Source: Botryllus schlosseri (Eukaryota). Taken from it: a stretch of DNA of 64,000 nucleotides. The notes beneath the pieces were generated by a model. It was given only the letters and a program-made list of their open reading frames with translations. It had not been told where the DNA came from and searched no databases. Made by a program: the position numbers and the translations under genes. The stretch spans positions 25,794,001 to 25,858,000 of the forward strand of contig CM119371.1 of the NCBI GenBank assembly GCA_051294905.1. The letters are read 5' to 3'. Shown here one piece after another: positions 6,357 through 55,991 of the stretch; the stretch's first letter is position 1; every line of letters starts with the position of its first letter.

Positions 6357-6447
6357 CTGCAGTCTTCTGATCCGTCACAATAATCTGAAGCATCAAGGCA
6401 ACCCGATCCATCGTGACATGTAAACTCTCCTTTGGAACATTTCAATC
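6357..6447 (-). CDS. Exon A7 LKCSKGEFTCHDGSGCLDASDYCDGSEDC
   Basis: TTCCATAG| acceptor, CAG|GTACTG donor, 91 nt, canonical LDLa N-part. Confidence 0.9.
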
Positions 6448-9400
6448 CTATGGAATTATTCAATTAGACGATTTTCGTAGCTAGGCAATTTTTGTCGAAA
6501 CAATTTATTTACAAATATTTGAGTTATTCGCTACAATTTGCTATTCCCGGAAACTATAATTTTTATACTAAGCTTGTACTAGAAGCGGTAGTAGTTGTAT
6601 GAATGATTTATTAAATTCCAAGTTCCTCTAACTTGTAAACTCTCATAACTTTGCTTCTATAAATTTCGTTTATCGTTTACCTCTAGCCAACGGATCGGAA
6701 TCAGTGGAATTATTGTGCTATTATATTATACCGTTTTCAATTCTTAGTGATGTTATACCCGATAGGTCCCAAATGGCCACTTTACATTTACTATAGCTGC
6801 TTTCAAAAAGAAGATATGTAACAGTTTCATATTTACCATCTCTGCACAATCTCTTCCGGTCGTGTTCTAGGTATTGCGGTAGAATGCAAACTTGTGAAAG
6901 GCCTGTGGCTTTCTTTCTGCACATCGTCGCATTGTCAAATGTCATATTGTGTGGTTCGTCTGATCCATCGCTGTCAAAAACATTGATACTATAATATAAT
7001 TCTTTAATTTAATTTTTTCATAAAATAATTTCGACAACGCTACCCTGGAAATATTAAACCATGGACCAAGCACCTCCCTACCCGTAACCTCGACTGAAAC
7101 TTTTTTGTCAATTGCACGAACAGACCTAGTAAATACGTGCTATTCATGAATATTGACTTCGACGGCAGGAAACAATCATCACGGAAAAATAAAGTCTACT
7201 GAAGAGGTACTCATCTATTTGTAGCAAAGGTGCGTTTGCAAAAGTTTAAAATTTGCTTTGGTTAGTTATACCTCTCATGATATAATTTGTAGTCATACAA
7301 GTGTATTATAATACCATATAACGATATACAAATTCCTGTAAAGCAGGGCCGGCCAACCCGTGGCCCGCGGGCCACATGTGGCCCGCGAGAAGGTTTTGAG
7401 TGGCCCGCGAGGTAATTTCCGAAATTTCTAATCTCATGAAAACTGGATTGCACATATTGTGAACTTGCAAGGACAACGAAAAATTTGATTGGTCTGGTCG
7501 CAACACGTGAGATGTGATGACTAAAATATCAGTTTCGACTCATTGACAAATCCATCAACCATTCACATATTGGTATATCTTCGTACACAACAATAAATCA
7601 GAATAATTTGCGATAGATTTATCAGAGGTAACAATTTTCTACAAGCTTAGCGCAATATATTGTCACTCGATTTCTTGTTTTAAATATTGTTGCCCTTTTG
7701 TGAAAATTGAAGAACGCGTAATGTATCAGATTGAGTCTAACTATATTCACGATTACGAAACAAAGTGTCGTTCAACATATGCGACCTTGCGTTTGCGCTC
7801 GCAGTAAGACCGTCGATTATGAAACCTAGGCACGAAATAATTGACGCATGTTGGTCGCAGCTTTCGATATCGATATGTCCATGCGCCGAATAGCCCAGTC
7901 CTCGCAAACTTAGCCCAGCGATATACAGCAGGCCCGCAATATAGTCAAGTGATAACATTATTGACCTATAAACTTCAAAAAATTTTCGCGCTTCGCGCGG
8001 AAAGTGGCCCGCGCAAACGTTCGCCGATCGAATGTGGCCCTTTGGCTGAAAAGGTTGGCCAGCCCTGCTGTAAAGCGATAGTAGTAGGTGGAATGAGCGA
8101 AATGTAGACATATCTATTGGTCTATTCGTCACAGCAATGGGAAATATGGCATTATTCATTCATTGCTATTTCTTTATATTTTGGTTTTGAAGTGATGAGT
8201 GCGCTACTTTGCATTTATTCATAGGTTAAATACCGTAATAAATGATCAAACTGAAATACAAAAGAACAGTTGTTTAGACTAGCCCAATCTCAATCACTCC
8301 AACAACTCTCAAGAAGTGGGCGCTAATACATACATACACGCACGTCGCACAATGACAACAACAAAAAGACGGGATCGCTCATGCGTTTAAGGAAACTATT
8401 ACAGAGAGAGAGGTAACAGTAAGAGACAACCACTTCTCCAACTCCCAACAAAATCAACGTCCATTGAGTTAGGAGGTCAAAATATCGCGTGTAGAGAACC
8501 TCCAATCAAATACTCCAATGGCGATCGAAGCGGGAATCACCATAACATTTGTGCCCTAATAACGTAGTCATTGTGTCATACTAGAGGGGTAATAGTTCTG
8601 CCTGAGCGCTGGGGTCTATCGTTAGACGATGTGGCAACAATACTGTCCTCGATCTGTACTTCAACTGGTTGATGATTTTCTGCACTCGATTCGGCGTATC
8701 TCAGCACGTCAGGGTCAACCTCATTTGACAGTCCACTTCTAGCGGGTGGCGAAACGACTTGAGGTGACGTAGCTGTGCCGGGAGACGAGACCATTGGCAG
8801 AAAAGATGGGTGCTTTTCGCTCGGGAAGTACGGCTCGATCTTGAACAGAAATTTCCTGTTACGCAGAGTCAATCTAACGGAACCGTCCACTTTCACGAGG
8901 TACTGGTCATGGCTCCAACGAAGGGGATACCGACCGTTCTGGTTTTGAATGTGACAGACATCACCTTCATGAAGGGGTGGTTGTGGTTTAGTGCTCAACG
9001 ACAGAGATTCCAGCTGATTCGCATATCTAGTACGCAACGTGTGCTCGCCACTTTTCCAAACGTTTCGCAATAATGGCCGGATATTGAGCTGGGTGAAAAC
9101 TGGGACCCATGCTTTGATCGGCAAACCTTCTTTCGAAGTCCTGCCAAATACTATTTCTGCAGGAGAGAGTTCGTTTGCAGGGTCGGGGCAGATCTGAAAC
9201 TGTAGCAATGCCCGAGTAATTGTATCGGTCCGAATGCTGCCATCCTGCGATTTCTACGCAGCCTCCGCGCGGTCATTTGACATAGAGCGGTAAGTCGACG
9301 ACAGCTTGTGGCGCATCCCCCCATTTCTGTGCTGTGCGCAGCAAAACTCAAGGCCTCCGTCGCTGCCAAGTTCCTCGGCCGCTCCAAGCATGCCGAAGTA

Positions 9401-18400: not shown

Positions 18401-21400
18401 TCCCATGAGGTCAAAAACGGAACATATTATACGTTATTTCGGGTTTTCCATTTTGTGGAAAACGATTTTTTGTATTAATCCTGCACGAACCATATTTGAC
18501 GAATACGTTATAGTTCGTGCTTATCGAAATGTCCGTATTTAGAAGAGCTAGCCATATACTAACACTGTATCACCAAAATACCCTATAATCTCAGAATGGT
18601 CCTATATATTCACTAGCTATACACCTACTAACACGACCAGTGACCACTTCGAGTTGCTTGAACGCCATCAGATAAAAGAACAGATTTAATAACACGTATG
18701 TGTGTATGTGTGGTATCAAATATCACTTCTTATAGTCGACTATGCAAATTATAATTGAAATCATGGAGCAAATGTTTTCGTTGGGAAAAATATTGGTTTT
18801 ATCGTGACGACCGCAAAAATAGGCATCGGATCCATACAGCATGATGGTATATTTCAGTATTCGGGTGTATGTAATCCAGGGGTTACAAACTTTTCGGTGC
18901 GCGGGCCGGATTCAAACATGTTGATTAATCGTGTGTCGGACTAGTCAAAGGATTCCGAAATGTTACCCCAAAATCCATACCCGAAGAGATTTAACTATAT
19001 AACCCGAACCATTGAATTTAAATATTTTTAAATCACCATTCGGGATTCTCTTCGCACCGGGGTTCTGGGCCTTGTGTATGTAAGGGCAGCTGCGATCACA
19101 TTTGTTGGAGTTCTATTATTCGTGTAACTACATTAGTCTCCGTGTACGATGTAGCTAACTTGCAACGGTATTGCTTTGGTGTTTTCGCCTCTGTGAATAA
19201 TCAGTTTGGCCCATTTGTCCGGAAACCACTGTACTGAGTGTGCGCTTATTTGCTCTATCGAAATATTGTGTCAATTTCAACGACTTGTTCGTATTGGTGA
19301 CTTGAGTTAAACAAAAAAGTGCCGTGGAATGGTTATAATGTTGCTATGACCATGTACGACATCTGCTCTCTTTGTAACGTCAAAATATTTCTTACTCAAA
19401 ATGTCAACTTTTGTTGGAAGTGCGGGATATTACAAGGGTTTTGCCAGTTACTCAGAATTGCTTCGCAGGCCGGATGAAAGCGCCTGGCGGGCCGCAGACC
19501 TTCTGATACCCCTGATGTAATCGGTACCTGCATTCCTTTCTGCCGTTGCAGAACTCTTTAGCACGAATACACCTCCTCGAAGGGTCGCGACATTCGAATT
19601 CCGAAGCGGAACAATTAATCTCTGAAATGAACCATGTAATTAAACCATTCCGTGTGATTATATAATGTATTGCCTCATCGCCGATCTCGCTGTTAACGCA
19701 GCGACTTAGTTAGCCGAGCTCCAAAGTCGGCAGCAGAGACCCGAGATCGTATGTAAGAAATCGAGAATGAATGAAAGTGTGGGAGTGCGCGAGCACGACA
19801 AGTCGTATTCAAGAGCAAAAGAGAAGATACTCAACTGTACCAAATGCATTGCCATGGCGCACAAAGGCATGAACAGGCGATAAGCGCCAATGTTGTTGTG
19901 TGTGATAATAACAATAATATATACCAGTTATAACTGACCGTGAAATCAGGAGCGACCGCCCAGATATGATAATTAAACTAAAAAATAAAAGAGAAGGCTT
20001 ATTCATTGAACTGGCCGTCCCAGCTGATAATAACATATTACAAAAGGAATCAGAAAAACAATCGAAATACGCAGAGCTCAAAATGGAATGTGAGAAAATG
20101 TGGCGATGCAAAATGAACATTAGGGATGGTGGGAACCAATGATGAGCATCGGAGCGGAGTCGGAGTGGATTCGGAGCGGAGTTTTGCCGATTTTGTGGCA
20201 GTCGGAGTTTACTACAGATATTTTTTCGGAGAATTTCGGAGTATTGTAACTTTTGTCCCCGATATCTTTGGATAGCTCTGACCAGAACACACTATTGATT
20301 ATGATTACAAACCAAAACACAGACAGTTGACACCTTGTAAAGTTGTAATATGACGGGTAACATGCAAAAATGATTGCCAAGTGCATAAATATCAGCCATC
20401 TGCACTGCAATTGGAGACTTGAGAGTAAACAATACTATGAGGCGAACACATGTACCGTGTTCTACCATGTGTGCCATGTACCATGCTTGCCACTGTTTCG
20501 GATGCTTGACAAGATTCATCGGAGTATTTCGGAGTCTGGGATTGAGCTCTTCGGAGTCGGAGGGAGTTTTCCTCGGGCACTAAAGTTGTCGGAGGGATTC
20601 GGAGTATCGAAAAGCACTATCCGCTCATCACTGGTGTGAACGTGAGGTTCACGTTCGCGTTCTGTGTGTGAACCTCGGAAATTTAGAGGTTCGCGTTCAC
20701 AACAAAACCTTGGTAGGTTCTACACTGTGAACCATTTTCATATATTACAATTTTCACTTCATTACAACATCTTTAGTTCATATTTATTGTATTTTCAACT
20801 GCGTGCCACTCTATACACGGCGCTGGCAGCATTAAAAATCAACACTTAACGAGCATGCACCTTGACAATCTCAAATGTTTTACTTGCTTTGTTACAAAAG
20901 TTTTCTCGAAATATCCAGGTTTCCGTTGGTGAATATTTAGTGACTCTCTGTTGTGAGTTTGAGCCGCATTCAAAAACATCACGAGCAATATACGTAGTCA
21001 GCGAATGATGCTTATTCAACCAATCAATGAAATTGATATCGTTTTCTGATGAAAAAAATGTAGCAGGCGTACGGGGTCAATCTTGACTTCATATCTTGAC
21101 TGCATCAATAAACCAAATCCATGCGATTGAGGGGTTGGCCACTGCTGTATAGTGTATAACTTGTTAATGGGGTAATATTTGTAGCGAGTTTAGAAACCTG
21201 TTTTACACTCAGCTCAATATCAATGTAGCGATACTCAGACGCCGAATACATTGTCCGGTCTGGTCTCGACCGTTAGGCCTAAGTTTATCTTCCCTGGTAA
21301 GTCCTCGTCAGAATTGTTGGCAAAGCGACGGAAGATATTGATTTTATGGGAGTATTATATCCTTTAATTGCCTCAGTTGATACATTTACGGTATAAAGTT

Positions 21401-24400: not shown

Positions 24401-27400
24401 ACTGTATAAAACGCTTTAAAAACCACCAGCAGCCGAAAGTAAATCAATAGACATCAAATAAACATTTACAATGCTTTATTCGGTCGATTCGAATTGATAT
24501 TGCTTCTGCAGGACAAATAAAGTGCGAGTTTCAAGGTCCCAATTTACCCTAATAACTAGGGCCATTTAAAGTCATTAAAGTCGTATTTTTTTCTCTGCAT
24601 CAGTAAGTCGTACAATCAATTTTAACGTAAAAACCGCATCCCTATGGGGTATATTATGAAAGTTATAAAGTCATATAAAGTCATATTTTCCTGGTTAGGT
24701 CATATTTGAGTTATAAAGTCATATTGTTGTATACTTTAAATAATAAGTGCCAATTGAAGCGGTGAAGCGATTAAGCACTAAGTAAGGCAAACTACAAGGT
24801 TAGCCTACATAACATTACAGTCACAGACCTATGAGGTCACACATTGCATTATGTGGTCAGATATTGCATCATGTTGCTACAAAATTTATTTTACTTCTGT
24901 GCACTGAAGTGGGGCGTCATTTGAAGTTCAGTCAGGGGGCAGGCAAGCTAAAAAGCTCAGTCTTGGTCTACTTATGTACAAATACATTACAACTAGCAGC
25001 GAACTGAAGAATATGACAGTTGAATATATACAGTTCACTTCAAGTTTATTCCTAAGAGACTTAGACACAAAGAGAATATCTGGTTCAGCATGCCAAAAGT
25101 GAGAGAATCTAATGCAGCGATAGTCAAAGCTATTGTAAATGAATTTAAGGACTTCAAAATCTCCCCTACAGAGAAAGTGTCCTGTCATATATGCAGTTGC
25201 ATTGTGAAGCATGAGAAACGTATTTTTGTTGAACAGCATCTTGCAACACTCAAGCATAAGATATGGATTGAAGCAAGAACGACCCCCTCTTCAGCTCTGC
25301 AACAAGCATTCTCTGCATCTGCTATGTTGTGTGTGTTTTACTCGTCAGTTCCATGAGTTGGTTACAGTTAAAATACACGATTTTCACATAAAGTCATATA
25401 AAGTCATATTTTCCAAAAAATAAAGTCATATTATTGATTTTTTAAGGTCATATAAAAATGGCCCTGCTAATAACCCATAATTTTGTGGGTTGTCTCGTTT
25501 GATACTGGAGCAATAGTCATCTAACATATGTAAGCTCCAATCTTCTCTGGTATCTTACCTCGAAGATCTTCAGATATTGTGGGACACTTTCCCCTTGCCC
25601 ATCGCTGACTATGCAATGTTTTCCGGGAAATTATTTCGATATTTTAGCTTTTGAACCACTTTAATATCAGTAATTGCTGCAAACACTTTTATTTGAGAAA
25701 AAAAGATGACTTGACCATGGTGTATAAATATATAGCCAAACGCATATAATATAATGCTAACTTACATCAGTCTCATTTTTCTGCATCGAAATGTGGGTAA
25801 AGTTGGTCAAATTGCAGGGCAAATGAGATACCCGACGTTAGAAGCGACATGATGGTAATCTGTAAGCGTCTCTACTTTGACGCAAAGTTATTTCTTTTGA
25901 ACATAACGATACATGTATCCAACGGAAGCCTCATCGTGTAAGAAGTTAGTGAATGCCGTTCGGTCTATGTTTCGTAAATCCAACCATCAGTTTATGTCAC
26001 GTGACATTAGTAGTGTTGTTGTTGCACGGCCCAATGCTAGTCTTTTCACGTGGCGAGGAGGCGTTCAGATACCCCTCCAACTTGAGTTGGAATTCTTGAG
26101 TCGACCCTGGTCGGATTGGAACCCGCAAAACATTGGTGTCGCAGCTGTGGAAAGTACCACAACCGCAACGCTATCTCGCCACTATTACTGAGTATCGTAA
26201 AACAATTATTGAGTCTGATGTTTCATTGACTGGTAAATTAAAAATAGAAATATTCACACAAATCTTTAAATATTAAGTTTTCAAGTGTTCGTATATAATC
26301 TGCAGTGCACATATACGGTTGATACTCCACAGCGGAGGTGTCAAACATGCGACCCGCGGGCCGCATCCGGCCCGCCAGACGATTTCAGCCGGTCCGCGAA
26401 GCGACTCCGAAAAATGGCTGTATTATGCAGCTCATTTCTGAAAAATGTTGAAATTACTTTCACTAAATAATCCCTCAAGACAGCCTATGTATGGTATGTT
26501 CATATGTTCATAAGCCACATTATAAGCATACACATCGGACAGAGTGGTGTTGTGGTTTCACTTTAATGCTAATCAGCAACTAATCGCTGCCATTGCCAGC
26601 TAATTCCGAGACGGTAAAATTGCACACTGAGCTCAGCGTTTTGTGGAAAAATCGACCTAAACGTAGTTAGTGACAAAAGTGAAAATCCAAGTTAGTATAT
26701 GCAGGCTACATGGAGAACATAATTGTTACAAAAAAAATATTTAAAATACCTCTGGTCCCACTTCATTTTCGCTAATGACAGCTCCTCGGCTTCCAGAAAA
26801 AACGAATCGCGATATGATAATAATAAATCAAATTTCATCGTCTGCGTTTTCAATTAAATATCGTGTATTCCTCACAACGCATACACACGACTATTGGTAG
26901 ATTATGACTGAAACAATGCCATTATAGCAATATGCCAACGTATACCATCGTCATAGTCACCGTTTTAGTAATTTATATAAATGTATTCAATCGAACAATT
27001 ATCGTCGTTTTGCCAATTCCATTAATTACGAATAAAGTTGAAAGAATAGACTCATAGGCTGTATAATTGAGTATTCAAGTGGGCAACACGCCTCACAGGC
27101 ATGGATTTTGAGACAACATTTTGGAATAATGTAACTGGTCCGGCCTTCGATCGATTTGAAGGTCTGAATCCGGCCCGTAACGCAACTTGAGTTTGACACC
27201 CCTGCTCCACAGTGTAAATTTGATGTACTTAATGCTAAACTCCAATGTATACAATTTTCAGACCTACCTGATCTGCACAGATACTTTCGTTTATGTTGGA
27301 GTTCAGGTGGAAGAATACATAGTCTGGAATTTCCCGACCGTCTTCTACACAGTGTGCTGTCATCTTCATTTAACGGATATGGCTCGTCAGATCCATCTCT

Positions 27401-36400: not shown

Positions 36401-39400
36401 CGTATAAGTTTGTATCGGATACTACCGCATTACCGCATTGCGCGATTAAGAAGTCAAGTGAGAATATGGTAGATCGTATCATGATTCCAAACTTTTTGCT
36501 GATATCTATTTACTGTGATGAAACTATCGTATGGGATACCATATATGTGGCAAGACACTGCCCAAAGGAACATTGTAAACGCTGGATAAATAATATTGAC
36601 CGATACTTCCGTGGAAAAGATTTTGATCACTCCATATATATGGCGTGCTAAAGACCGTCTGCGAATACAACCCCTGGTATTTTGGTCTCTCTCTGAACAG
36701 AATGAAACGCTCTGCTTGTCCGATATAATAGTATTTCCCTTTACTATAGTGCAGCTACCAACAACTAAGCATGTGTTGGATGGTGCGGACCACCGGATGA
36801 ATACCACTGCTCACGAATACTCGTGTTACAACTATGAACCCAAAATTTCATATTAAGATATGCCATTGCGACAAAACAAAATTTTGGAGTTTATTACCCC
36901 ACCACCCGATCTTGTTATGAGTAGGGCTGGCCACGATGATCGAGCAGCCTACTCGAATCAGAATCGAGTACTAATTCGCATAATACATTGTCCGGTCTGG
37001 CATGGACCGTTAAGGCGTAAGCTTATATTCCCTTGCAAGTCCTCGTCGAAATTCTTGTCAAAGCGACGAAAGATATTGATTTTATGGGATTATTATATCA
37101 TTTGATTGCCCAGTTGATACGTTTGGCGACGTTCAAAACGTCAATATGTTATTTCAGCATTGTGGTATTATGTGGCCCGAGTCGCCGCTAGATATAGTGT
37201 ACAATTGTACATTAATATAGGCTATCACTTAACTGAAATATATGACGTCACGTGACGTCATGAGGTTCACGTTCGCGTTCACACAGAACCTTTGAAAAAG
37301 GTTCGTGTTCACACGAAACTGAACCATTCAGAGGTTCACACCATACCTGAAGTTTTCCACTTTCCCTTGTGTAGCAATATTGACTACATTGACCCACTCT
37401 AACGGGGACTCTGATTAGGAAAAGCTCTCTTTAGTCATAAATAAGTAATATGGCAATATAAAAAATTCCCAAGTTTTTTGTTACTTGAATTTCATTTTCA
37501 CACTTGCCTCGTATCATAAGGAGCACTGTATATTTTCTCTCAATCACACACTGCATCTGTACAGACCCGTGGAATTGTATTGTCAAGCTATACGTGTACC
37601 TGCAGTCATTCGATCCATCGCAGAATTGTGCGACGAGAAGACACTTTGACCCATCCCGACATTCGTCATCAAGTAAACGGTGTCGATTCATTCACTGTAT
37701 TTTGTGTATGTTCGGTTTGTTCGCGATACGCCGGTGTCACTTGTGAGGGCAACCAGTCATTCACTGATTGTACATTTCACTGATATTTCATTGTTGCATC
37801 ACAAATAAATTGACCGCAAACGAAATGATCACAGCTTACGTTGTAGTAGTAGCAGTAGTAGTAGTAGTAGATTATTGTAATAGCAACGTATCTATGTTTA
37901 TTAGACGACTCTGTGCTTACATTGTACAGCACTATCACCTTTACCATCCCTCTTGTTTGATTTAAATGGAACGAATATAGTATATGCGTTTATATTCTCA
38001 CGGATGTGTATATGGTTAGTGTATTGTACCATACCAATTTGTTTAAACTTTTCGAGGCTTCGTATTCGATCCTCCATTTCGGCTGGTAGTAACAGAATGT
38101 AGCATGTAGCTGTATAGCTACTCACCGTATTTTATTAGCAGTACTGCGTGTGGGTAAGCGATACAACGCATTTTGCATGTATATTTAACTTTATATTCGT
38201 TATTCGATTCAAGCTAAATGGCCAATTAATCTGTCTTTAACACAGATAGCAAAATGTAACGACTTTGAATGATCACTCAAATTTCGGAAATTCAATTTGA
38301 CTTGAATTGTGACTTGATTCATGAATTGACTTGACTTGACTCGAGTCAACTCCAAAAAACGGCTGACTCGACTTGTCTCGAGTCACCTCCAAAAATAGAT
38401 TGACTTGACTAGACTCGAGTCAAAATGTGCACTGAGTCGAGATGACTAGTTACTCGTGACTCGCAACATTGATACGTTGTGCCGTTTCGGTTTCGGTAAA
38501 GTGACCAAAATAAACTGTGAATGACTGCAAATAATCCTTAGTCAATATCTAGCGCAACTACCAAGTCTTATCAACAGAACTCACACTACACGATGTAATG
38601 TAACTCTGAAACGAGACTGCATGAGAAATTGTTATTATATCGAGAAGTGCGCGACGAAAAACTGCAGAGTATACAACATTATCAGTATCAAGGAAATGGG
38701 TGAGTCACCAGCACACCATCAGATAACAATGGTATTGAATGATACCCAGCAAATAATTATTACCGTGGATTTTTCCAAGCAAATTCGTAAAAACGGACAG
38801 TTTTATCCGGAGAATGTAAAAAAGTACCCAAAGATATTAACGTTTCGTGCAATATTACGCAATTTATAGTGGAATTATTCTTCTGTCACAAGTTTTCAAA
38901 ACATCCGCGTTTATAGTCAGAAAGTTTTCCATTGCTAGGTCAGATTTCACGTGTTATAGGCACAAAATACTTGCCTATAAGATTTTTTGTTTCTATTTCA
39001 TAGTTAAAATTCGAAGTATATCCCTATTTTTTGAAGCCTTATTGTGATCGTATTTCGTTCGCCAATGGTACAATGTCAACTGTATTTATTAGGCCTATAT
39101 ATCTAGATAGCGTGCACAATAGAATGAGATTCCAATATAGTTCATCCGTCTCCTGAATGAGTTTCATTACTTTAGTCTACTTACCAATTGCTCGAGCTGT
39201 GGATGCTGAACAGATTATTTTCGGTGGGAAAGAAAACAAGTTATTGTGATGGGTCGAAGTCTTAAATAATACAAATACATAAAAAGGCGATAATGTTTTG
39301 CTCATATACTTACTATCACTACAAAGATCGTGTCGTATGTGTCGGAGTGAGAGGGGAAGGATACAAAGTAGTCCCGGTCCAAAACCGTTGACTCTTCTAC

Positions 39401-42400
39401 ATAAAGTTCCATTATCTCCATACGTCGCATATGGTTCATCGGATCCGTCGCTTGAAAAATATTTATAACGTATGTATTTGTTGATGCCTAGCCTATAAGC
39501 AGAGGATTGTGTATAAATTGAGCCAACCGCTGCGGTTCGTCGGGAGCATATGCAGTTCTTCTAACTGTCTACTCTAACCCTAGCGTCAGGCGCTTGTACT
39601 ACAATAACTGCATCGATTCCCAAATTCCTGCGAATTTACTCATCGCCCATTTATTCACTATAATTAGCCCACACAACCAACTAAGCTCGGTTGGTGAGCG
39701 CGAACCTATAAATTATCAAGGTTTCGCTTACCGAACACGAATGCGATCCGGACGTTCGTAACACCCCCAATGCATATTCGCAATCAAATACATGAATATT
39801 TTCAGGAAATGAACTAATATGTTCTCGCTCATCATTTAATCACCAATACCTGCAACCTTTATATCCGTCGCAAAATCGTTCAGCATCAATACACCTCGAT
39901 CCGTCGCTGCACTGGAACTCCTCCTTAGAGCAGTGTATACCTATGGAAATAATTATTATAACAATTCACTTCATTGCACTAAGTTTGTGTGGAATTAACG
40001 GGAATTGAATGATAGCACTACTGGTTGAAATTGTCAACGTTTTTCAATATGATTCAGGTGATCATATCTACCAGTTAAGCAATAATGACAAGTGGCTTAC
40101 AGTTAAAATCGATCAAGCCTCCTCATGCGCATTGCGCACTATCTTTACCTATGATAGTGAAACACAATGACAAAATAGTTGTATACAAGTTACAAGTCAC
40201 AAGACAATCTCACATTATAGTTTTGACTCGAGTCAAGCCACCACCAATCCGAATGCGAGTCCTAGTCAGGGTGCAAAGTGTCAAGTCTGCATCATAATAT
40301 TGGGACTCGAGTTGTAGTACTAATCGCCGTGTTCACTGGTCGGTCCCGAGTTAAAGTAATTTTCATCTCAGGATTTTACAGTTTTGCTTGAGATATGTTG
40401 ACCCAGATGGGTCGCATTCATATTCTCAAACTTTTTCTTACTCGCAACATGTTTATTCAAACAGATAAAAGACAGTTTGTTTCCTTACCGGCAGTGAAAG
40501 ACACAATGTCAATATTGCGGTAACTTTACATTTTTTTCGAAGTTGCCTTGCCCGTATGACACATTATGATGTGCTCAAAGTAGCCAAGACTGCTACTCTA
40601 GTAAAAGTAGACGTAGCGACCCAGAATTATACTCAACCACCATTAGAACTAGGACATTTCGAAGCAGAAAAAACTACATAACCGGGAAGTAGAATAAGCT
40701 GACTTTGAAAATTATTCAATGAGGTAAATAGTGTTTAAAAGCAGTCGCACACACGCTGCCATTATTCGTAGTCCACACTTGAACTGGGCTAAATCGAGTA
40801 CCTGAATGATTCGATTCAGAATCATGTATTACGCTTCGAGTCGAGTCGAGTATTCGCGTATCACTCATGATGACATCACAACAGAAGGGACTATGCCAAA
40901 GTTCAAATATGTGCCTTTTATGCCACCACAAAGAACATAATTCCTGTTATCCGTTACATGAAAGATACTTTGGTATTTATTAGACCATATCGACTTCATG
41001 ACACTTCTTGACAATGGTGGGGGATGATGGTGACTTGAGAAAAGTGGTATTTCCAGTAACGTTCGTATATTTGAACTACTATTTGTCAAAACTATATTTC
41101 TCGTTAGTAAATGAAGTTTCGGTTGCGAGGAGCGTATAATTTCAGTACTCGAAAAAATCGTCTTTTATCACTCGACTCGGATCATTAAAATTGATACTCG
41201 ATTCAGATTCGAGTACTCCAATCATTGTGCCCAGCCAGACTCCAAACCCGGAAACTGACTTATATGCTGATGGTGTCGGGAACTGGTTTGGTTTGTGTTG
41301 CTATACATCATACGCAGGAGGTATATATTGTCAACTGCATAAGCAATCGACAGTATAATGTGTTACAAAAAAGCTTTTGGTATCGAACAGTGGAACAGTG
41401 GGACTGTTTTCACTCCGGTACCACCTTAAAAAATGTGTCGGTATGATGACCTCATTCGTATTGATACAAGGCCCGCAGTTAATGAGGCTATGAGCAATAC
41501 GTATAAGTTTGTATCGGACACTACCGCATTACCGCATCGCGCGATTAAGAAGTCAAGTGAGAATATGGTGGATCGTATAATGATTCCAAACTTTTTTGCT
41601 GATATCTATTTACTGTGATGAAACTATTGCATGGGATACCATATATGTGGCAAGACACTGCCCAAAGGAACAGCGTAAACGCTGGATAAATAATATTGAC
41701 CGATACTTCCATGGAAAAGATTTTGATCACTCCATATATATGGCGTGCTAAAGACCGTCTGCGAATACAACCCCTGGTATTTTGGTCTCTCTCTGAACAG
41801 AATGAAGGGCTCTGCTTGTCCGATATAATAGTATTTCCCTTTACTATCAGAGGTGGTCAAAGTAGTCAAGAAAGCTACTCAAGTACAAGTAAAAGTAGGG
41901 GAGATGTGGTACCGATGGATCAATAATTGGAAAATGATCGCTGGCCCTAAAATGTTCCGCCGAAAACAGCAGGTCTTTTGCTGGCTCAGCACTTTGATAC
42001 AAGCTCTACCTATCGCGCACATATACATGAACATCCGTCTTTTCAAAAAATATTCATGGACGTTCAAAATTTGTTGCTCGAACGTGTCATCGGTTCTCAC
42101 CCGGTGTGTCCAATGGCACACGACCCGGAGACCTATGACACATATACCCTAAATACCTCAGATGTGACAACTTTTTTGCTCAGTATTATAATCTAAGCTA
42201 CAGTAAGCCAAAGAAGAATGTTTGATCACAACCGTCAAGAAATAGAATAAATATTAACTCAAATGTTGTCATAAAATCCCGTTTCGATTAAGGCTCGGAC
42301 TTATAAATTTGAGGGTACATACATATTGCCCGAAAAGTGACAGTGTGACTTCCAAACACCTCGTTATAGCGATAAAACATCATATGCAATTATTACATAA

Positions 42401-45400: not shown

Positions 45401-48400
45401 TGAGGTTGATGGATGTTACGGAGAGACGGCCAGTTCGTTTTATGAATTTCCTGATTTCCCCGTTCTCAATGGGAGTTGCCGAGTTCTTTGAAACTATTTT
45501 GAGCAAAATCTAGCAGGTCCCATTTTAACTTCACCTTTTCGTCTAACCGCGAAAGTCACACGCACGATACATGCAGTGATCGCGGACAGTGAAAAGAACC
45601 AATTTGGTAGAAGGTCATGTTCTGTCATTTCAAATGAAACTTTAATATCTTTCATATTTACCGATCCTGCACAATTTCATCCTTTCATGTTCCAGATGCA
45701 GCGGTAGAATACAAAGTGATGCACCACGTGTAGACTTCCCTCTGCATAGTGTCTGATTGCTATTGTCAAAAGTGGCATATTGTGTCTCGTCCGACCCATC
45801 GCTGTCAATAGAAATTGTGTTATGCAAGATTGATTATTAGTCGATTCGTTGGAGTAATCTCATATAGTCATGTCGTGGAATAAGGCTAGATAAACGACTT
45901 GTGCCGCTCTCATCAGACTTCAAACAGGATATGATCATGGACTCTGTGGCATTGTTTATAATTAGGAAACGGTGGACGGACTTTTAGTTGAGTGCAATAG
46001 ATACTGTGTACACGAAATTCTAAAAGAGCCGCCCAGCAGGTATAAATCTTTTTGTACCAGACAACTTGTCGTCAGAGCAGGAGAAACTATAGGAGGTACT
46101 CTTTTTATGATGGTGCGAAAGGATCTTAAAATCGGAGGACCAGTTCCCTTTCTAATGAATAAACAACAACTTATCTAGAGTTTGAACTTCCTATGACTCG
46201 CTGCATTAGAGCGGTAGTAAGATCGTAAATTCAACACAAAATAAAGATAAACGACTAACATGCTGAACGTTTTAAATTAGTAGTGTTGCATCCAGGGTTG
46301 AATTTAAAACAAATATCAATGTAAAACAAACATGTTTAAAACAAAGCCATTGTTTGAAACATGTTTTTATTCTTTTTGTTGTTGTTGTTGTTGTTTATTT
46401 TCGGCCATGACGTCACGAATATTCAATTGTGGCGTCATAGTGGATTACCATTGACAATTGAAAGTATATGGTGAATATAGCTCCTTTGACGAAATATCTG
46501 TACTATTGCTGTTGAACCGACTATTTTTAGGGTGCCAACCATCTCATATCGATATGCGTCGGCTATATCTGGTAGCAATTGTCCGCAGGCTCATACAACA
46601 TGTTTTTTTGGAAAGTATTTACACAATTATGGCATAATTTTGCAACTTGAAAAAACACAATTGTTTTTTTAAAGGAGCCTTTGTTTAAAACACCGTTTGT
46701 TTAAAATGCAACCCTGGTTTCATCACATGATATCACAGATTCGTGTGACGTCTGTGTTTGCAGTTAACGTATTATTAATTTGGCGCTCAGAAAATCACAG
46801 CCATTCAGATGTCTACGCCAGCTTTGCTCGGTTAAGCATAATTGCACTCCATTGTTTTAGGTGAAAATTTATAGAATGATTGTGTAGTATTTTCAAGTAG
46901 CTGTAAGTTGAATATAATATTAAATTCTCAGAACAATCACAATTGCACTGAACGTACAGAATATTTGTTATGTCACCATCAAAAGAATGTTACAATTCAG
47001 TCCTTGGTATCGACACTTACATGAATCAAGATACGTTCCCCACTTGAGAACTGAAAATTATTGATGCAAAACGCATAGTCTATTTTCGCGAAGTTCTATT
47101 CCCTGATCCTAAATGAACTAGCTAGGAAATATATCTGATTGCAAATTTACCGCTTGCATGAGTGAACAATATAGTTTAGTAGGTCGCCAGGTATGGTTAC
47201 CTGCAATCTCTATCTCCGTCGCAAAAGTATGAAGCTGGTATACAGCCAGATCCATCGCTGCATTCGAAATCTTCTTCGGCACATTTCAATTCTAGAGAAG
47301 TATTGAATAGATAAATTAAATCGTCTATTTTTTTCTACATGTAACGGACGGCCGAAATCTTATCACTACGGACTCTTGGGATTTCGTTATAACTGTATGT
47401 AAATAGCAACTGTTTGCTTCCATACTAGCGTATGCGCTTTAAAGGAAAATTAACCGTCTGTTACTAAGCTTGTCATACTGTTCAACGAATAGTTATGGCT
47501 AATATGAGGACTCTAAATATGTGTATTTCAGTGGATTGTCAGGGTTTAAATATCTACTATCGCGTTCGATTCCTGCCTGTCGTTCTCAATTAAACTCAGC
47601 CACAGCCGAGGGTAATCGGGTGTCGAATGTTATTTAAAAATCACTTCAATTTCATTATTACGGGATACGGGAAATTAAGCCCGAACGAAGGACGTCACCC
47701 CGATGGCTGAGATCCACATGTTCGCGGTGGCGATTAGTCATGAAATTAAATTTAAATAGCCCTTAACTCTTGAAAAGAGGCACCCGAAAAGTCTTCGAGT
47801 TAATAAATATTAATATACAATGGATATTGTATTGAAATTAAATATGCACCATAAACATTTCGTGTGAACCATATCACGTAGAAGGGATTAGATGTTTGTT
47901 CATAATTACCAGCTTTGCATAACGTATTTCGGCGTTTTTGTAGCTCGGGCGGGAGGATACAAAGAACGTGTGGATATTTCGATCTTCTGCACAACCTGCC
48001 ATCGTTAGAATCATGTTCTGACGCATATCGCTCGTCGGATCCGTCTCTGACAAAAAATGCCTTAGATTATATTTCATATTCTGACGCACATGGTTGATCG
48101 CGTTGGGTCCTCGGAACGTAATGGACAATTCTTGACCACCCGGCATCAGTAAACGATATGTCTCGTGTATTAAGTTTCATCTCGCGTTAGCCCTGTCCCA
48201 AAGTTTCTGTCAAACTGATCTCTTTTCTTCAGTATCCATTAGGCCAGCGGTGGGCAATTATTTTCCTCCGCGGGTCAAATGAGAAAAATAAATACGTTGG
48301 CGGGTCGAATGAAAAGTCTTAGCTATATCCTCTAGCGTTTTTTAATTTTATTTCCAAATTACATTGGTAATAAATGCGGCTCAGTAAATGTTTTGATATT

Positions 48401-54400: not shown

Positions 54401-55991
54401 ATTGCCGGCATGACCAGTCAAATGATTCCAAAATTATTCGCAAACAACGGAATTTGCAAAAATGTTATAGCTGGACCGCTGAATACAGTTGTTAAATACT
54501 GGATAAAATATGGCCTCTAACGACGATACAAGTTAGCATATTTCTATACCCAGTTGATTCATTCGTGATGTGGCGTTTGTCCTGCGTATGCGTTATGCGT
54601 ACCCTATAGACTTGGAAGTTTGTATTTGATACATTATTGAAAATCACCATTCGGTTTTCTCTGCGAGCCGGTGACCTTTTGAGTCAGAAGTAGCACACCA
54701 GTGCGACCGCATAGATTTGAATTTGGTCTATATTCTTTGTGTAGCGATTATATTATCCATTTCACCTGTATATAACGGTTTAGGATTGGCATTCTCGATT
54801 CACTGAATACCAACATTTAGGCTCAATGAGCACCTTTTTGCCTTCTCTGATTTAGGTATATAAATGCCAGTGACTTGTTTTTAATTGTGACTAACCGCAA
54901 CACTGATCTCGGAAGTATGCGTTGTGACCTATTCACACATTCGACATATGCCGAATATAGGTGGATTATTGTTTTATTAAACTCAAAATCTCAACATTTG
55001 TTAGGAATGTGCTGGATAAAAAGAGCAGTTGTCCATCCACTCGAAACTCGAAATTGCTTCGCGGGTCGGATGAAATCGTCTGTCGCGCCTAATGTTTGAC
55101 ACCCCTGCTATAGGCCGCTCATCACCCGTGCTAAGCGCTATGATTCGCGTACTTACATCCGAATTAAGCATTACTTGTTCTTATTCGAGCCCCTTTTCCA
55201 TTATCAACGAGAACTATGTTTTCGAAACTTTCCCTCAACGTCGCTATATCCCAAAACAACGAATTGTCGCACCGCAGCATCCAAACTTGTAATGCAAGCT
55301 AAGCACGTCGGTGGATAAGATATTTCTATCACATATCTGATGAACCTATATTATTGCAACAAAGCACAATTGAATAGGTATGATGAATAAAATTATTTTG
55401 ATTGTGTTTTTAAAAATTCATACACACATATATATATATTCACGCATATTTCCATATCATCCATAATGTAATGAGGTGATGAGTAGAGTGATGCTCTATT
55501 GCTTAATTCGGAATCGTAACCGGCAAGTAATCTAATTTGCACAACCCTATGTCACCTGCAATGTCGCACTCTGTCGCAGTAATACATGATGTGAAAGCAT
55601 TGACTTTGGTTTCTGCATTCGAAATGACGTTCCCCACATCTTCGTCCTGAAATCTTGTTATGTGAATACCAATAGCTCCGAATTTCGAAGAATCATATTC
55701 TAATCTCGAATAACAGACCAAAATTGTGACAATTTGTAAGCTCCGTGTTCCGCGCGGCCTGGTCAGGGGCTGCCGTATCGGAGAATATGTTTAAAGCAAA
55801 CAGACAAAATATAAATACACGTACACATTTATAGGAAGGATTAGGGCAACTGTATATATAGTAACAGATAATCACACAATGTTGGATTTCTAGAACTATA
55901 GTGAGCGATTATCACACATGCAATAACACTTACCTTGTACGCTTGCAACAGCTATGACTAAGGCGAAGTCCAAAAAATACATAGACGACAT
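6357..55991 (-). CDS. Multi-exon gene encoding a secreted or cell-surface protein: signal peptide plus tandem LDLa-variant 8-Cys repeats; 3' end unresolved. join(complement 55934-55991, 55556-55646, 47910-48046, 47201-47291, 45662-45801, 39850-39940, 39314-39450, 33800-33890, 33270-33406, 29520-29610, 27268-27398, 19528-19621, 6837-6970, 6357-6447)
   Basis: 14 exons with AG/GT boundaries; intron phases alternate 1,2,1,2 consistently; the 1514-nt concatenation has no stop. Each A+B junction rebuilds the LDLa motif C-D/N-x3-x-C-[S/R]-DGSDE. Confidence 0.88.
6837..6970 (-). CDS. Exon B6 DGSDEPHNMTFDNATMCRKKATGLSQVCILPQYLEHDRKRLCRD
   Basis: TTTTTGACAG| acceptor, |GTAAAT donor, 134 nt. Confidence 0.9.
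7344..8067. mobile_element. Non-autonomous hAT element
   Basis: TIRs CAGGGCCGGCCAACC / GGTTGGCCAGCCCTG; perfect TSD CTGTAAAG. Relatives at 16079-16922 and ~28360-28700. Confidence 0.9.
8205..8432 (-). repeat. 3' LTR of the Gypsy element, with PPT at 8433-8446
   Basis: Aligns with 14134-14290 plus 15632-15715. Minus strand reads GGGAGTTGGAGAAG|TG at the boundary. The left boundary is approximate. Confidence 0.8.
11441..12999. mobile_element. Non-autonomous hAT-like element with (CAATTA)n subterminal arrays, inside the Gypsy element
   Basis: TIR CAGAGTTGGATCAATT at both ends; TSD GTGGAGAC/TTGGAGAC. Confidence 0.88.
14293..15628. mobile_element. Non-autonomous TIR element (PIF/Harbinger-like) in the 5' LTR
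   Basis: 18-bp perfect TIR core CGTTTCCATGCACGGCCG (starts 14295, ends 15626), flanked by TTA/TAA-like triplets. The superfamily is inferred. Confidence 0.7.
14612..14950 (+). mobile_element. tRNA-derived SINE (second family)
   Basis: A box AGCGTAATGG, B box GGTTCGATCCC, followed by a non-tRNA body (GACCAAAG...CTTCCCTGCTTGGCGCTCA) and an A-rich end. The 3' boundary is approximate. Confidence 0.7.
15822..17771. mobile_element. Non-autonomous hAT element with (GGAGTC)n subterminal repeats; nested MITE at 16079-16922
   Basis: TIR CAGGGCTGTGGAGTCGG at both ends; perfect TSD GTTTGCAC. Nested element has TSD ATACAGAT/ATATAGAT. Confidence 0.9.
18877..19514. mobile_element. Non-autonomous hAT element next to the exon A6 donor
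   Basis: CAGGGGT..ACCCCTG ends; perfect TSD ATGTAATC. Relative at 54360-55107. Confidence 0.85.
19528..19621 (-). CDS. Exon A6 INCSASEFECRDPSRRCIRAKEFCNGRKEC
   Basis: CATTTCAG| acceptor, CAG|GTACCG donor, 94 nt (one extra codon). Confidence 0.87.
19670..19918 (+). mobile_element. 5'-truncated SINE related to 1810-2122, with a (TAA)-rich tail
   Basis: Shares CTCATCGCCGATC.CGCTGT....CAGCG, ACTCAACT and GCGCA..AAGCGCCAA with the 1810 SINE. Confidence 0.65.
19919..23730 (+). mobile_element. 3' fragment of an R4/Dong-like non-LTR retrotransposon (restriction-like endonuclease), split by a hAT insertion
   Basis: Joining 19921-20120 with 23297 onward gives RSDRPDMII..FIELAVPADNNI..EKQSKYAEL..W..IVPIVILATG..(stop)..IQKIKLLGTVHILRKVL. 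The 3' UTR to ~23730 matches 53300-53600. Confidence 0.85.
20121..23288. mobile_element. hAT element with nested MITEs (20137-20633; 21486-22622, which contains ~21793-22250)
   Basis: TIR TAGGGATGGTG / CACCATCCCTA; perfect TSD ATGAACAT. Nested TSDs GTGGGAAC/GTGTGAAC and GTCTAATT (perfect). Confidence 0.88.
24557..25466 (+). mobile_element. hAT deletion derivative retaining an N-terminal zinc-finger ORF (25090-25356, CGGBP1-like)
   Basis: TIR TAGGGCCATTT / AAATGGCCCTG; perfect TSD CTAATAAC; AAAGTCATA subterminal repeats; ORF MPKV...CHICSC...HLATLKH. Confidence 0.82.
26333..27204. mobile_element. Non-autonomous hAT element
   Basis: GGTGTCAAAC / GTTTGACACC TIR cores; perfect TSD CTCCACAG. Confidence 0.85.
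27268..27398 (-). CDS. Exon B5 DGSDEPYPLNEDDSTLCRRRSGNSRLCILPPELQHKRKYLCRS
   Basis: CCTTGCTAG| acceptor, CAG|GTAGGT donor, 131 nt. Confidence 0.9.
28919..29434. mobile_element. hAT MITE of the TAGGGCTGGGCA family; other copies at ~34725-35172, ~40785-41235, 44203-44715, ~44802-45295 and a fragment at 36922-36976
   Basis: Perfect TIRs and TSD ATCATAAG; the empty site is visible in duplicate copy 2 at ~37513. Confidence 0.92.
29520..29610 (-). CDS. Exon A5 IKCSDEQLECRDGPRCLRFAQFCDGSIDC
   Basis: CTTTCTGTCAAG| acceptor, CAG|GTACAC donor, 91 nt. Confidence 0.87.
29769..30704. mobile_element. hAT MITE with GACTT/GACTCGAGTC arrays; second copy 30941-32440 with a nested fragment ~31520-32068
   Basis: TIR CAGTGTTGGGAT at both ends; perfect TSD TTTCAAAC. 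Confidence 0.88.
33270..33406 (-). CDS. Exon B4 DGSDEPYATYGDNGTLCRRVKYSKPGLLCILPLSLRHIRHDLCSD
   Basis: TTTTTCTAG| acceptor, |GTAAGT donor, 137 nt; visible inside ORF 33133..33483. Confidence 0.9.
33800..33890 (-). CDS. Exon A4 IHCSMEEFQCSDGSRCIDPRRFCDGYKDC
   Basis: TTTCTACAG| acceptor, CAG|GTATTG donor, 91 nt. Confidence 0.9.
35438..36398. mobile_element. Non-autonomous TIR element with TA TSD (Tc1/mariner-superfamily-like); second copy 41898-42861
   Basis: TIR GGGGAGATGTGGTACCGATGGATCA with TA flanks; empty site in copy 2 near 41498. Confidence 0.85.
37600..37665 (-). pseudogene. Truncated pseudo-exon, paralogue of A5 (ECRDGSKCLLVAQFCDGSNDC), acceptor and first ~25 nt deleted
   Basis: Aligns to 29520-29585, then jumps to sequence matching 31101 onward. 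Donor CAG|GTACAC is retained. The nearest upstream AG gives a stop in either useful frame. Confidence 0.85.
39314..39450 (-). CDS. Exon B3 DGSDEPYATYGDNGTLCRRVNGFGPGLLCILPLSLRHIRHDLCSD
   Basis: TTTTTCAAG| acceptor, |GTAAGT donor, 137 nt. Confidence 0.87.
39850..39940 (-). CDS. Exon A3 IHCSKEEFQCSDGSRCIDAERFCDGYKGC
   Basis: TTTCCATAG| acceptor, CAG|GTATTG donor, 91 nt. Confidence 0.88.
41848..44020. mobile_element. hAT-like element with AAGTA(G) arrays, specific to duplicate copy 2
   Basis: TIR CAGAGGTGGTCA / TGACCACCTTTG; imperfect TSD TTTACTAT/TTTTATAT; empty site in copy 1 near 36745. Confidence 0.8.
45662..45801 (-). CDS. Exon B2 DGSDETQYATFDNSNQTLCRGKSTRGASLCILPLHLEHERMKLCRI
   Basis: TTGACAG| acceptor, |GTAAAT donor, 140 nt. 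Confidence 0.9.
46293..46716. mobile_element. hAT MITE
   Basis: CAGGGTTG / CAACCCTG ends; TSD GTTGCATC/GTTTCATC. Confidence 0.8.
47201..47291 (-). CDS. Exon A2 LKCAEEDFECSDGSGCIPASYFCDGDRDC
   Basis: CTTCTCTAG| acceptor, CAG|GTAACC donor, 91 nt, near-canonical LDLa sequence. Confidence 0.92.
47910..48046 (-). CDS. Exon B1 DGSDERYASEHDSNDGRLCRRSKYPHVLCILPPELQKRRNTLCKA
   Basis: TTTTTTGTCAG| acceptor, |GTAATT donor, 137 nt, phase 2-1. Confidence 0.9.
48245..49513. mobile_element. Non-autonomous hAT element with nested MITE 48519-48792
   Basis: TGGGCAA / TTGCCCA TIR cores; perfect TSD CATTAGGC. Nested TIR CAGTGGTTCTC. Confidence 0.8.
49680..49850 (+). mobile_element. RNase H C-terminal fragment of an I-group LINE
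   Basis: IPGNEKADELAR...WQ matches the GNE.AD.LA motif of non-LTR RNase H domains. Confidence 0.7.
52760..53275 (+). mobile_element. 3' fragment of an I-group (I/Nimb/Loa-like) LINE with CCHC finger and TAA tail
   Basis: FRLRSGH...LFRIG..DSPMCEEC..ETVEHFLISC; short 3' UTR ending (TAA)n. Confidence 0.85.
53277..53600 (+). mobile_element. 3' UTR fragment(s) of the R4/Dong-like element
   Basis: Aligns with 23439-23730, including CCTTTGGG.CAGGTTGCT.CCCGGATTATGTGTGT and AATAAAGAATA. Confidence 0.8.
55556..55646 (-). CDS. Exon A1, LDLa N-part RRCGERHFECRNQSQCFHIMYYCDRVRHC
   Basis: TTTCAG| acceptor, CAG|GTGAC donor, 91 nt, five Cys with LDLa spacing. Confidence 0.85.
55934..55991 (-). CDS. Exon 1, signal peptide MSSMYFLDFALVIAVASVQ(G)
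   Basis: ATG, hydrophobic core, V-Q-G cleavage-type site, consensus donor AAG|GTAAGT, phase 1 matching exon A1. Confidence 0.8.

Follow-up and report, generated by a model that had tools for sequence, protein, structure and literature searches.

Introduction

The closest described systems are the LDLRR-GPCRs of the tunicate Ciona, which carry N-terminal LDL-A modules on a G protein-coupled receptor (GPCR). The accessible part of the report by Kamesh et al. 2008 (PMC2396169) describes a Ciona-specific cluster of 14-15 such receptors, in which the LDL-A modules occur singly or as 2-10 tandem repeats, leucine-rich repeats (LRRs) are absent, and the transmembrane (TM) regions are like those of INSL3/relaxin receptors; the group is called functionally unrelated to relaxin receptors there, and GRL101 is mentioned as having tandem LDLa. 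The gene presented here begins in a 64,000-nucleotide stretch of the Botryllus schlosseri genome (GenBank assembly GCA_051294905.1, contig CM119371.1, positions 25,794,001 to 25,858,000 of the forward strand), referred to throughout as the window. It probably belongs to the LDLRR-GPCR family known from Ciona since 2008, and its closest database relatives are found in Styela clava and Ciona. We read the window as the first 14 exons of a minus-strand gene that encodes an orphan tunicate LDLRR-GPCR, whose repeat units would each consist of two LDLa-derived modules, and we place the probability of this reading at about 0.7.

An exon array with constant splice phases

On the minus strand of the window, a signal-peptide exon is followed by six pairs of exons, designated A and B, and by a seventh A exon, making 14 exons in all. 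When joined in silico by their coordinates, these exons gave 1514 nt, i.e., 504 codons with no stop and 53 cysteines (6 x 8 + 5), which bears out an earlier note on this DNA, where a signal peptide, six repeats and a seventh A half had been recognized as parts of one gene. Exon 1 (55934..55991) contains the ATG and a 19-residue hydrophobic, signal-peptide-like leader, judged as such from its sequence rather than by a predictor, and ends in the phase 1 donor G|GTAAGT. The B exons lie in six minus-strand open reading frames (ORFs), all of which (6/6) read DGSDE, then 11-13 residues, and then C-R-x8-10-CILP-x11-C; with the splice sites taken into account, they are B1 (47910..48046, with 13 residues between DGSDE and C-R..CILP..LC), B2 (45662..45801), B3 (39314..39450), B4 (33270..33406), B5 (27268..27398) and B6 (6837..6970). 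A tblastn search with the exon peptides retrieved eight A-type LDLa halves in the window, seven of which are complete exons. A1 (55556..55646) is a degenerate N-terminal part of an LDLa module with five cysteines and CDRVRHC in place of CDGxxDC (PF00057, E 8.3e-4, 20 bits, below the cut-off), while the other six all contain LDLa Cys1-5, namely A2 (47201..47291, E 1.2e-8), A3 (39850..39940, CDGYKGC, placed by tblastn and splice sites), A4 (33800..33890, E 8e-7), A5 (29520..29610, E 0.014), A6 (19528..19621, CNGRKEC, E 3.9e-5) and A7 (6357..6447, E 2.5e-6). Positions 6357 and 55991, the limits given in the earlier note, coincide exactly with the ends of A7 and exon 1, respectively.

All eight A-type copies are closed by TGCAG|GT (phase 2), and a pyrimidine-rich AG precedes each of the seven complete A exons, six of which are 91 nt long and one 94 nt. 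In every B exon (6/6), the acceptor consists of AG and one base (A or C, resulting in Arg or Ser), followed by GAYGGNTCNGAYGAR, and the donor GT is located 7 nt past the last Cys codon (phase 1). The eighth A-type copy is a 5'-truncated minus-strand remnant (about 37600..37665, from tblastn and the duplication alignment) that has neither an acceptor nor Cys1-2 and is probably skipped; its omission from splicing is frame-neutral, as B3 goes out and A4 comes in at phase 1. Nucleotide alignment revealed a tandem segmental duplication within the gene (29435..41000), which is the source of units 3 and 4: the stretch 37513-41000 repeats 29435-34936 in tandem with 90-93% nucleotide identity, the two units being young duplicates that are about 92% identical in nucleotide sequence, and a 1.5-kb deletion in the upstream duplicate copy took the acceptor and Cys1-2 of the eighth A-type copy. 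The window is AT-rich in base composition (GC 0.36-0.48). The exon array as observed is confirmed to be real, and a chance origin is excluded, since the B-exon type recurs with identical splice phases at 55 places in the genome.

Composition of the repeat unit

In the canonical LDL-receptor class A (LDLa) module, the sixth cysteine follows DE by 2-3 residues, the disulfides pair cysteines 1-3, 2-5 and 4-6, and a calcium cage binds basic side chains. When compared with the Pfam profile of this module (Ldl_recept_a, PF00057), all six A exons tested matched positions 2-28 of the 37 (E 1.2e-8 to 0.014), four of them scoring above the cut-off of 24.1 bits and two below it. Together, A and B form a unit of ~77 residues that shares with the canonical module the Cys1-5 spacing, an aromatic residue directly ahead of Cys4 and, in the majority of units, the acidic residues of CDGxxDC and DGSDE, one or more of which are missing from A1 and A3; unlike the canonical module, however, the window units have no Cys6 close behind DE. 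DGSDE itself is invariant in the window B exons (6/6) and in the aligned exons of the family (26/26), and in neither set (6/6 and 26/26) is there a cysteine within 10 residues of DE. The first cysteine after DE appears at 11-13 residues in the six window units and at 11-17 across the family exons, and is then followed by R. Thus, the earlier description of LDLa Cys1-5 with an invariant DGSDE and no canonical Cys6, adding up to eight cysteines per unit, holds in 6/6 units. The B tails are basic, with a net charge of +2 to +7 as counted on the six window sequences.

The B exon alone, modelled by AF2 on a 26-row alignment, reached a mean pLDDT of 71, with a predicted hairpin (residues 14-19 and 28-32) followed by a helix (33-42); the first two tail cysteines would come to lie on neighbouring strands of this hairpin. 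In structural searches with the model, Foldseek returned no PDB match at E<=0.001, and the best Z score in VIA-align wide was 2.3.

Probable continuation into seven-transmembrane exons

The 50 kb that the earlier note had taken for a self-contained gene are most likely the 5' third of a longer one. Genome positions on the contig of the window are given below as C1 coordinates, in which the gene runs leftward on the minus strand. B7 was located by tblastn at C1:25786061-25786195, which is 14 kb past A7 and outside the window, and A8 at C1:25778779-25778883 (tblastn of the 30 kb left of the window). Near C1:25775700, there is a variant last B exon that reads DGSDE, 13 residues, C, 12 residues, and then C-RLP-x4-CDG-x3-C-SEG, and that is followed by the mini-exon IDECLCGEKDE; an LDLa-like exon (..CFRC..LCDGSFDCPNLTDECLC..) is located at C1:25769541-25769705. 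Further leftward on the same strand, there are matches to an exon that comprises the C-terminal half of an LDLa module and TM1 (C1:25687069-25687209), and to a TM6 exon with CWxP (C1:25681861-25682022). With these exons included, the span of the gene would be at least C1:25849991 to 25681861, or 168 kb, and the window holds only the 5' 50 kb of it, about its front third. The introns are up to 82 kb long, this being the distance between the last LDLa-like exon and the TM1 exon.

A Pfam scan of 20 and then 110 downstream minus-strand ORFs, the latter being of at least 55 amino acids (aa) and representing those of 204 listed ORFs that lie outside 25694001-25724000, retrieved just RVT_1, weak LDLa and one zf-C2H2, with no seven-transmembrane (7TM) match within 25724001-25764000. 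No LRR family was found among these 110 ORFs, nor any LRR-like exon among the exons that are conserved between two paralogues. Of the LRR, 7TM or TM exons for which the earlier note had advised inspecting the DNA to the left, TM1 and TM6 matches were found and, within the ORFs and conserved exons just mentioned, no LRR. The ectodomain of an LDLa-bearing GPCR, one of the possibilities raised in that note, fits the downstream exons. Membership of the GRL101/RXFP type in the strict sense is not supported, as these searches revealed no LRR exon and LRRs are absent from the tunicate relatives described so far; a stand-alone secreted protein, also suggested earlier, is unlikely.

Paralogues and the gene family

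The connection between the repeat exons and the 7TM exons was drawn from paralogous genes. Four tandem minus-strand units at C1:25.18-25.85 Mb, which represent four LDLa-repeat GPCR genes of 100-170 kb with 5-7 B exons each, contain the variant, LDLa-like, TM1 and TM6 exons once each and in the same order. In two compact, divergent paralogues (C1:10.77-10.80 and 21.85-21.87 Mb), the exons follow one another in this collinear order over about 30 kb, with the ECL2/TM5, TM6 and TM7 (PINSALNPFLYS) exons at the end. When the paralogues were compared by tblastx with the downstream 106 kb, the output was swamped by repeats, and the stop-free matches common to both paralogues were retained. Five short exons from the 7TM region of a paralogue gave no 7tm_1 match in Pfam and one match to the C-terminal half of LDLa, and the TM6 exon, searched by phmmer against the PDB, retrieved only weak rows of GPCR TM6 (best E 0.03). 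A word-index search for longer proteins with the LDLa/TM1 exon yielded no candidate.

The family also has an intronless relative, L051 (C1:17801802-17804297, plus strand), an open frame of 832 aa, its 5' end not reached, that contains LDLa modules and a complete 7TM domain (Pfam 7tm_1 3.6e-20, Ldl_recept_a 3.6e-12). Its best PDB sequence match was RXFP1 (7tmw_R, 1.1e-16), followed by FSHR, TSHR and LHCGR, and it aligns exon by exon to the TM2-3, ECL2/TM5, TM6 and TM7 (NPxxY) exons of the paralogues. The matches suggest a cluster of similar intronless genes at C1:17.77-18.05 Mb.

Of the 55 places where the B exon recurs, 53 are free of stops, and all 30 loci that were inspected have the AG acceptor one base before DGSDE, three cysteines, C-[INV]-L-P, and a GT donor after C-x-x-G, the donor being at +4 rather than +7 in two of them. 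Genome searches with single exons retrieved 29 places for the variant exon, 87 for the LDLa-like exon, 58 for the LDLa-C-half/TM1 exon and 84 for the TM6 exon, with genes for other LDLa proteins or GPCRs among the weaker rows. Across 26 non-redundant B exons, pN had a median of 0.31 and pS one of 0.75, with synonymous sites near saturation; dS was usable for 140 of the 325 pairs, and for these the median dN/dS was 0.31, with 96% of them below 1. In the family as a whole, the B exon evolves as a coding sequence under purifying selection.

Several other features of the family are to be noted. Two further members are located on the plus strand at C1:25.04-25.17 Mb, and additional clusters are found on C1 (29.5-31.8 Mb), C3 (10.1-11.6 Mb), C2, C11, C13, C14 and C16. 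At the exon level, the family is several times larger than the 14-15 LDLRR-GPCRs reported for Ciona. In many copies, there is one TAG near the start of the match to the LDLa/TM1 exon, which is most simply explained as the acceptor of an exon that starts 3-4 residues into the query, rather than as the sign of a broken gene.

Origin of the tail of the B exon

The part of the B exon that follows DGSDE, with its C-I-L-P motif, is probably a degenerate, i.e., worn-down, second LDLa module, since the unit of ~77 residues equals two LDLa modules in length and the tail corresponds by position to a fuller module in the last unit of the gene. The exon of this last unit and B1-7 have the same phase 2 acceptor before DGSDE, the same phase 1 donor after C-x-x-G, and exactly 13 residues between the cysteine of C-x-L-P and the cysteine before the donor. 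In the last unit, these 13 residues contain CDG and continue as C-SEG|IDE-C, constituting an LDLa-like series of Cys3-Cys4-Cys5-Cys6. By position, therefore, the tail cysteines of B1-7 would correspond to Cys1', Cys3' and Cys5', and Cys2', Cys4' and Cys6' would have been lost.

Two kinds of possible intermediates in other tunicates point in the same direction. First, the conserved LDLa-like exon matches (E 2.3e-12) an uncharacterized protein of Styela clava, LOC120333763 isoform X1 (P0004, 1400 aa, PF00057 and PF00001). A profile of 26 B exons aligned best to residues 392-428 of P0004 (DGSDE..KCR..CSIP..), where 33 columns were 45% identical (probability 16% and E 1.6e-3 in hhalign), and Pfam sets the segment CSIP..DCADGSDE of the same protein on positions 15-35 of LDLa (E 4.4e-4, 20.9 bits against a cut-off of 24.1). 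Second, among the Ciona sequences in the published supplement, four of the six occurrences of CVLP, the single CILP and one of the two CSLP fall within LDLRR-GPCR ectodomains. Five of these six motifs are found shortly after a cysteine, which in four is about 8 residues past DG[ST]DE, and the six motifs are followed by x4-CDGxxxC-x-DLSDEC, by x10-C-EDGSD, or by neither. Such sequences would be intermediates between an LDLa module and the remnant in the window.

Evidence against the reading, and alternative explanations

Several results weigh against the reading of the window proposed at the outset, and each of them bears on an alternative. The first group concerns the tail. None of the six B exons matched any Pfam family at E<=10; comparison of the tail with the A exons by hhalign gave a probability of 0.3%; the B profile aligned only DGSDE with the exons of the last unit as well as with a tunicate-like protein, P0006; and the two matches to P0004 are themselves weak, at 16% probability in hhalign and 20.9 bits, below 24.1, in Pfam. 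Searches of protein collections were equally negative. A profile built from the six B exons, as the earlier note had advised, had no genuine match in 1.84 billion representative proteins: the one protein at E<=0.001 (P0001) is a low-complexity repeat protein rich in Leu, Cys and Tyr, and was rejected as spurious; the B-exon alignment gave 0/558 candidates at E<=0.01 in a word-index search for longer proteins, and tail residues 15-45 had no usable match in the ESM Atlas.

These results count in favor of the main inference of the earlier note, namely that the tail is a new subdomain, in which Cys6 has moved by 11-13 residues and pairs with Cys4, and the cysteines of CILP and LC close a fourth disulfide around a basic helix. 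The AF2 model is in keeping with it, as it predicts a helix of 10 residues between the last two cysteines, and the canonical LDLa module is not known to have such a helix. Nonetheless, we consider a new subdomain rather unlikely, since it leaves aside the intron phase and position and the 13-residue spacing common to the last unit, whose tail continues as CDGxxxC..IDEC, as well as the Styela and Ciona sequences in which the cysteine of C-[SVI]-[IL]-P leads on to LDLa Cys4/Cys5 and acidic motifs, and the length of the unit, which is that of two LDLa modules. The same AF2 model, moreover, would put the first two tail cysteines on adjoining strands of a hairpin, as are Cys1 and Cys3 of LDLa. Of the two origins put forward in the earlier note, the lineage-specific degenerate second LDLa is therefore favored over the undescribed domain, although the evidence is positional and statistically weak.

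The second group of results concerns the expression and constraint of this particular copy. Four RNA runs of 1.1-1.9 billion letters each, matched by species label, were mapped to 39200-56050 of the window. In all four, the bins covering exon 1/A1, A2 and B2 had a mean depth of 0, and those covering A3 and B3 one of no more than 0.13; as for the B1 bin, its depth probably stems from a narrow peak of reads near 47801 that is not part of the exon. Mapping of RNA had been recommended to confirm the 13 junctions, and no predicted junction was found among the 15 joints listed, of 52. The neighbouring duplicate gene differs by 1.2-2.2% in well-aligned flanks, with exons and flanks alike at about 1-4%, and as the exons are just as divergent as the flanks, this copy carries no signal of constraint since the duplication.

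It could be argued that the gene in the window arose by a recent duplication and is now silent or decaying, so that no protein is made from it, and that its exons remain readable because the duplication is young. Besides depth at or near zero on six of the seven exons covered (B1 being left open) and exons no better kept than the flanks, this alternative would account for the loss of the acidic CDG..DC motif from A1, the truncated exon remnant at about 37.6 kb, and introns as long as 82 kb. On the other hand, all 14 exons keep frame, cysteine pattern and splice sites, with 0 stops in 504 codons, and every downstream exon type is present once and in order. The runs, moreover, were sampled at 6-13% of their reads from unspecified tissues, and the transcripts of such receptors may be rare. 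Taken together, a silent copy seems improbable to us, a little more so than a new subdomain.

The third group concerns the link to the 7TM exons. The TM1 and TM6 matches were seen as search rows, with 79% and 46% identity to the exons of a paralogue; the 7TM exons, at a distance of 100-170 kb, are connected with those of the window by collinearity with the paralogues rather than by a transcript; and the 82-kb intron contains a minus-strand ORF of 145 aa with C2H2 zinc fingers (zf-C2H2 1.7e-16, C1:25761785-25762219), which may represent either a gene nested in the intron or a piece of a mobile element. That the repeat exons instead form a separate secreted LDLa-repeat gene ending before the 7TM, and the 7TM exons another gene with its own start, would agree with this gap and its zinc-finger ORF and with the lack of a joining transcript, but is very unlikely, considering that the matches listed include no further signal-peptide or B-type exons between C1:25786067 and 25607336, that the four exon types follow one another 1:1:1:1 in each of the four tandem units and likewise within about 30 kb in two compact paralogues, and that the Styela and Ciona gene models carry the modules and the 7TM in one protein.

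Other sequences in the window

Very high RNA depth was recorded at 49878-52125 of the window, up to about 660 per strand class (run X7), together with many minus-strand GT..AG joints, e.g., 50394 to 51332, 51462 to 51843, and 50394 to 51843. There is no notable ORF in this segment, and its part 49954-50229 recurs at 200-364 of the window and in L031. The reads are 95-99% alike and nearly all run into unlike sequence, and are thus ascribed to expressed paralogous copies of the repeat elsewhere. The intron between A7 and B7 contains an RVT_1 element of the non-LTR type (2935-5045, minus strand) with overlapping ORFs of 449 and 306 aa (Pfam 7.4e-19 and 2.8e-4). Seven large ORFs of the window had no Pfam match at E<=0.01, and of the transposons mentioned in the earlier note, the RVT_1 element is thus the one that could be named. 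The sequence at 11400-11650 is microsatellite-like and, depending on the frame, reads ITITIT, NYNYNY or LQLQLQ.

Proposed architecture of the receptor

If the window is indeed the 5' part of an LDLRR-GPCR gene, the product would be a receptor with a rhodopsin-class 7TM domain most like those of the relaxin and glycoprotein-hormone receptors, preceded by LDLa modules and without leucine-rich repeats. In each unit, the first module would be formed by the A exon and the opening DGSDE of the B exon, with Cys1-5 and the aromatic residue before Cys4 kept and Cys6 lost. The second would be the rest of the B exon, a basic remnant with counterparts of Cys1, Cys3 (in C-I-L-P) and Cys5, which a phase 1 intron cuts at D-G. 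An ancestral tunicate receptor may have had one such pair just before the conserved CFRC..CDGxFDCxDLTDECLC module, and in the subfamily of the window the A+B exon pair would have been copied in tandem to eight units.

The disulfides Cys1-3, Cys2-5 and Cys1'-3' would be expected to form as in other LDLa modules; the AF2 hairpin, with Cys1' and Cys3' predicted on adjoining strands, is consistent with the last of these. As Cys4 and Cys5' would then be the sole unpaired residues, they would bond across the modules, giving rise to a stapled double module. The acidic cages would bind calcium and the basic groups of a ligand or of a neighbouring basic remnant, and by analogy with the LDLa module of RXFP1/2, the ectodomain would present or gate a signal to the 7TM core. 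Going further, the A+B unit might be an undescribed stapled double module with a Cys4-Cys5' bond, in which the Arg/Lys-rich helix docks in an acidic cage, either that of its own unit or that of the following one, so that the eight units make up a rigid or self-inhibited rod, the opening of which by calcium, pH or a cationic ligand would control the receptor. We regard this extended model as unlikely; if true, however, the stapled rod would be a new way to build and gate an LDLa ectodomain, recently amplified in one ascidian lineage.

Significance and comparison with known receptors

Overall, the analysis assigns these orphan exons to a receptor family that is specific to tunicates, known yet unstudied, and represented by at least 58-87 exon-level loci in this genome; in part of the family, exon duplication has expanded one unusual pair of modules into a repeat of eight. 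The novel aspects are this amplification of the A/B pair and the clear exon-level evidence for the way in which a five-cysteine LDLa is paired with a three-cysteine remnant. Judged by sequence, one copy of the odd module already occurs in published proteins of Ciona and Styela; the accessible part of PMC2396169 describes typical six-cysteine LDL-A modules with no mention of a variant, and no description of a module without Cys6 was found in the literature searched. The finding opens no long-standing question. The repeat nonetheless represents a natural experiment on the loss of cysteines and of the calcium cage that LDLa tolerates under purifying selection, and a single 77-residue unit is a clean target for testing an inter-module disulfide.

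Among known systems, the Ciona LDLRR-GPCRs are the nearest, and as far as the accessible part of their description goes, they are tunicate receptors with N-terminal tandem LDL-A modules, no LRR and a relaxin-receptor-like TM region, as is the receptor proposed here. Several Ciona sequences contain one DG[ST]DE-x8-C-x8-12-C[VI]LP module before C..CDGxxDCxDL[ST]DECLC, resembling the last unit of the window gene. The window gene differs from them in that it repeats the pair of a five-cysteine LDLa and a three-cysteine remnant eight times in strict A/B exons, in that its remnant is without the Cys4 and acidic positions that are kept in some Ciona copies, and in its length of at least 168 kb. The Styela protein P0004 likewise has a 7TM with LDLa modules and no LRR among its precomputed Pfam domains; it carries one such module rather than a tandem array, however, and its third cysteine still leads into ADGSDE. 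Finally, RXFP1 and RXFP2 of vertebrates and GRL101 of Lymnaea, which are type C LGRs, also bear one or more LDLa modules at the N-terminus, as does the window family, and RXFP1 is the closest solved 7TM for L051; in contrast to these receptors, there is no LRR exon among the conserved exons of the window family, and its LDLa modules abut TM1.

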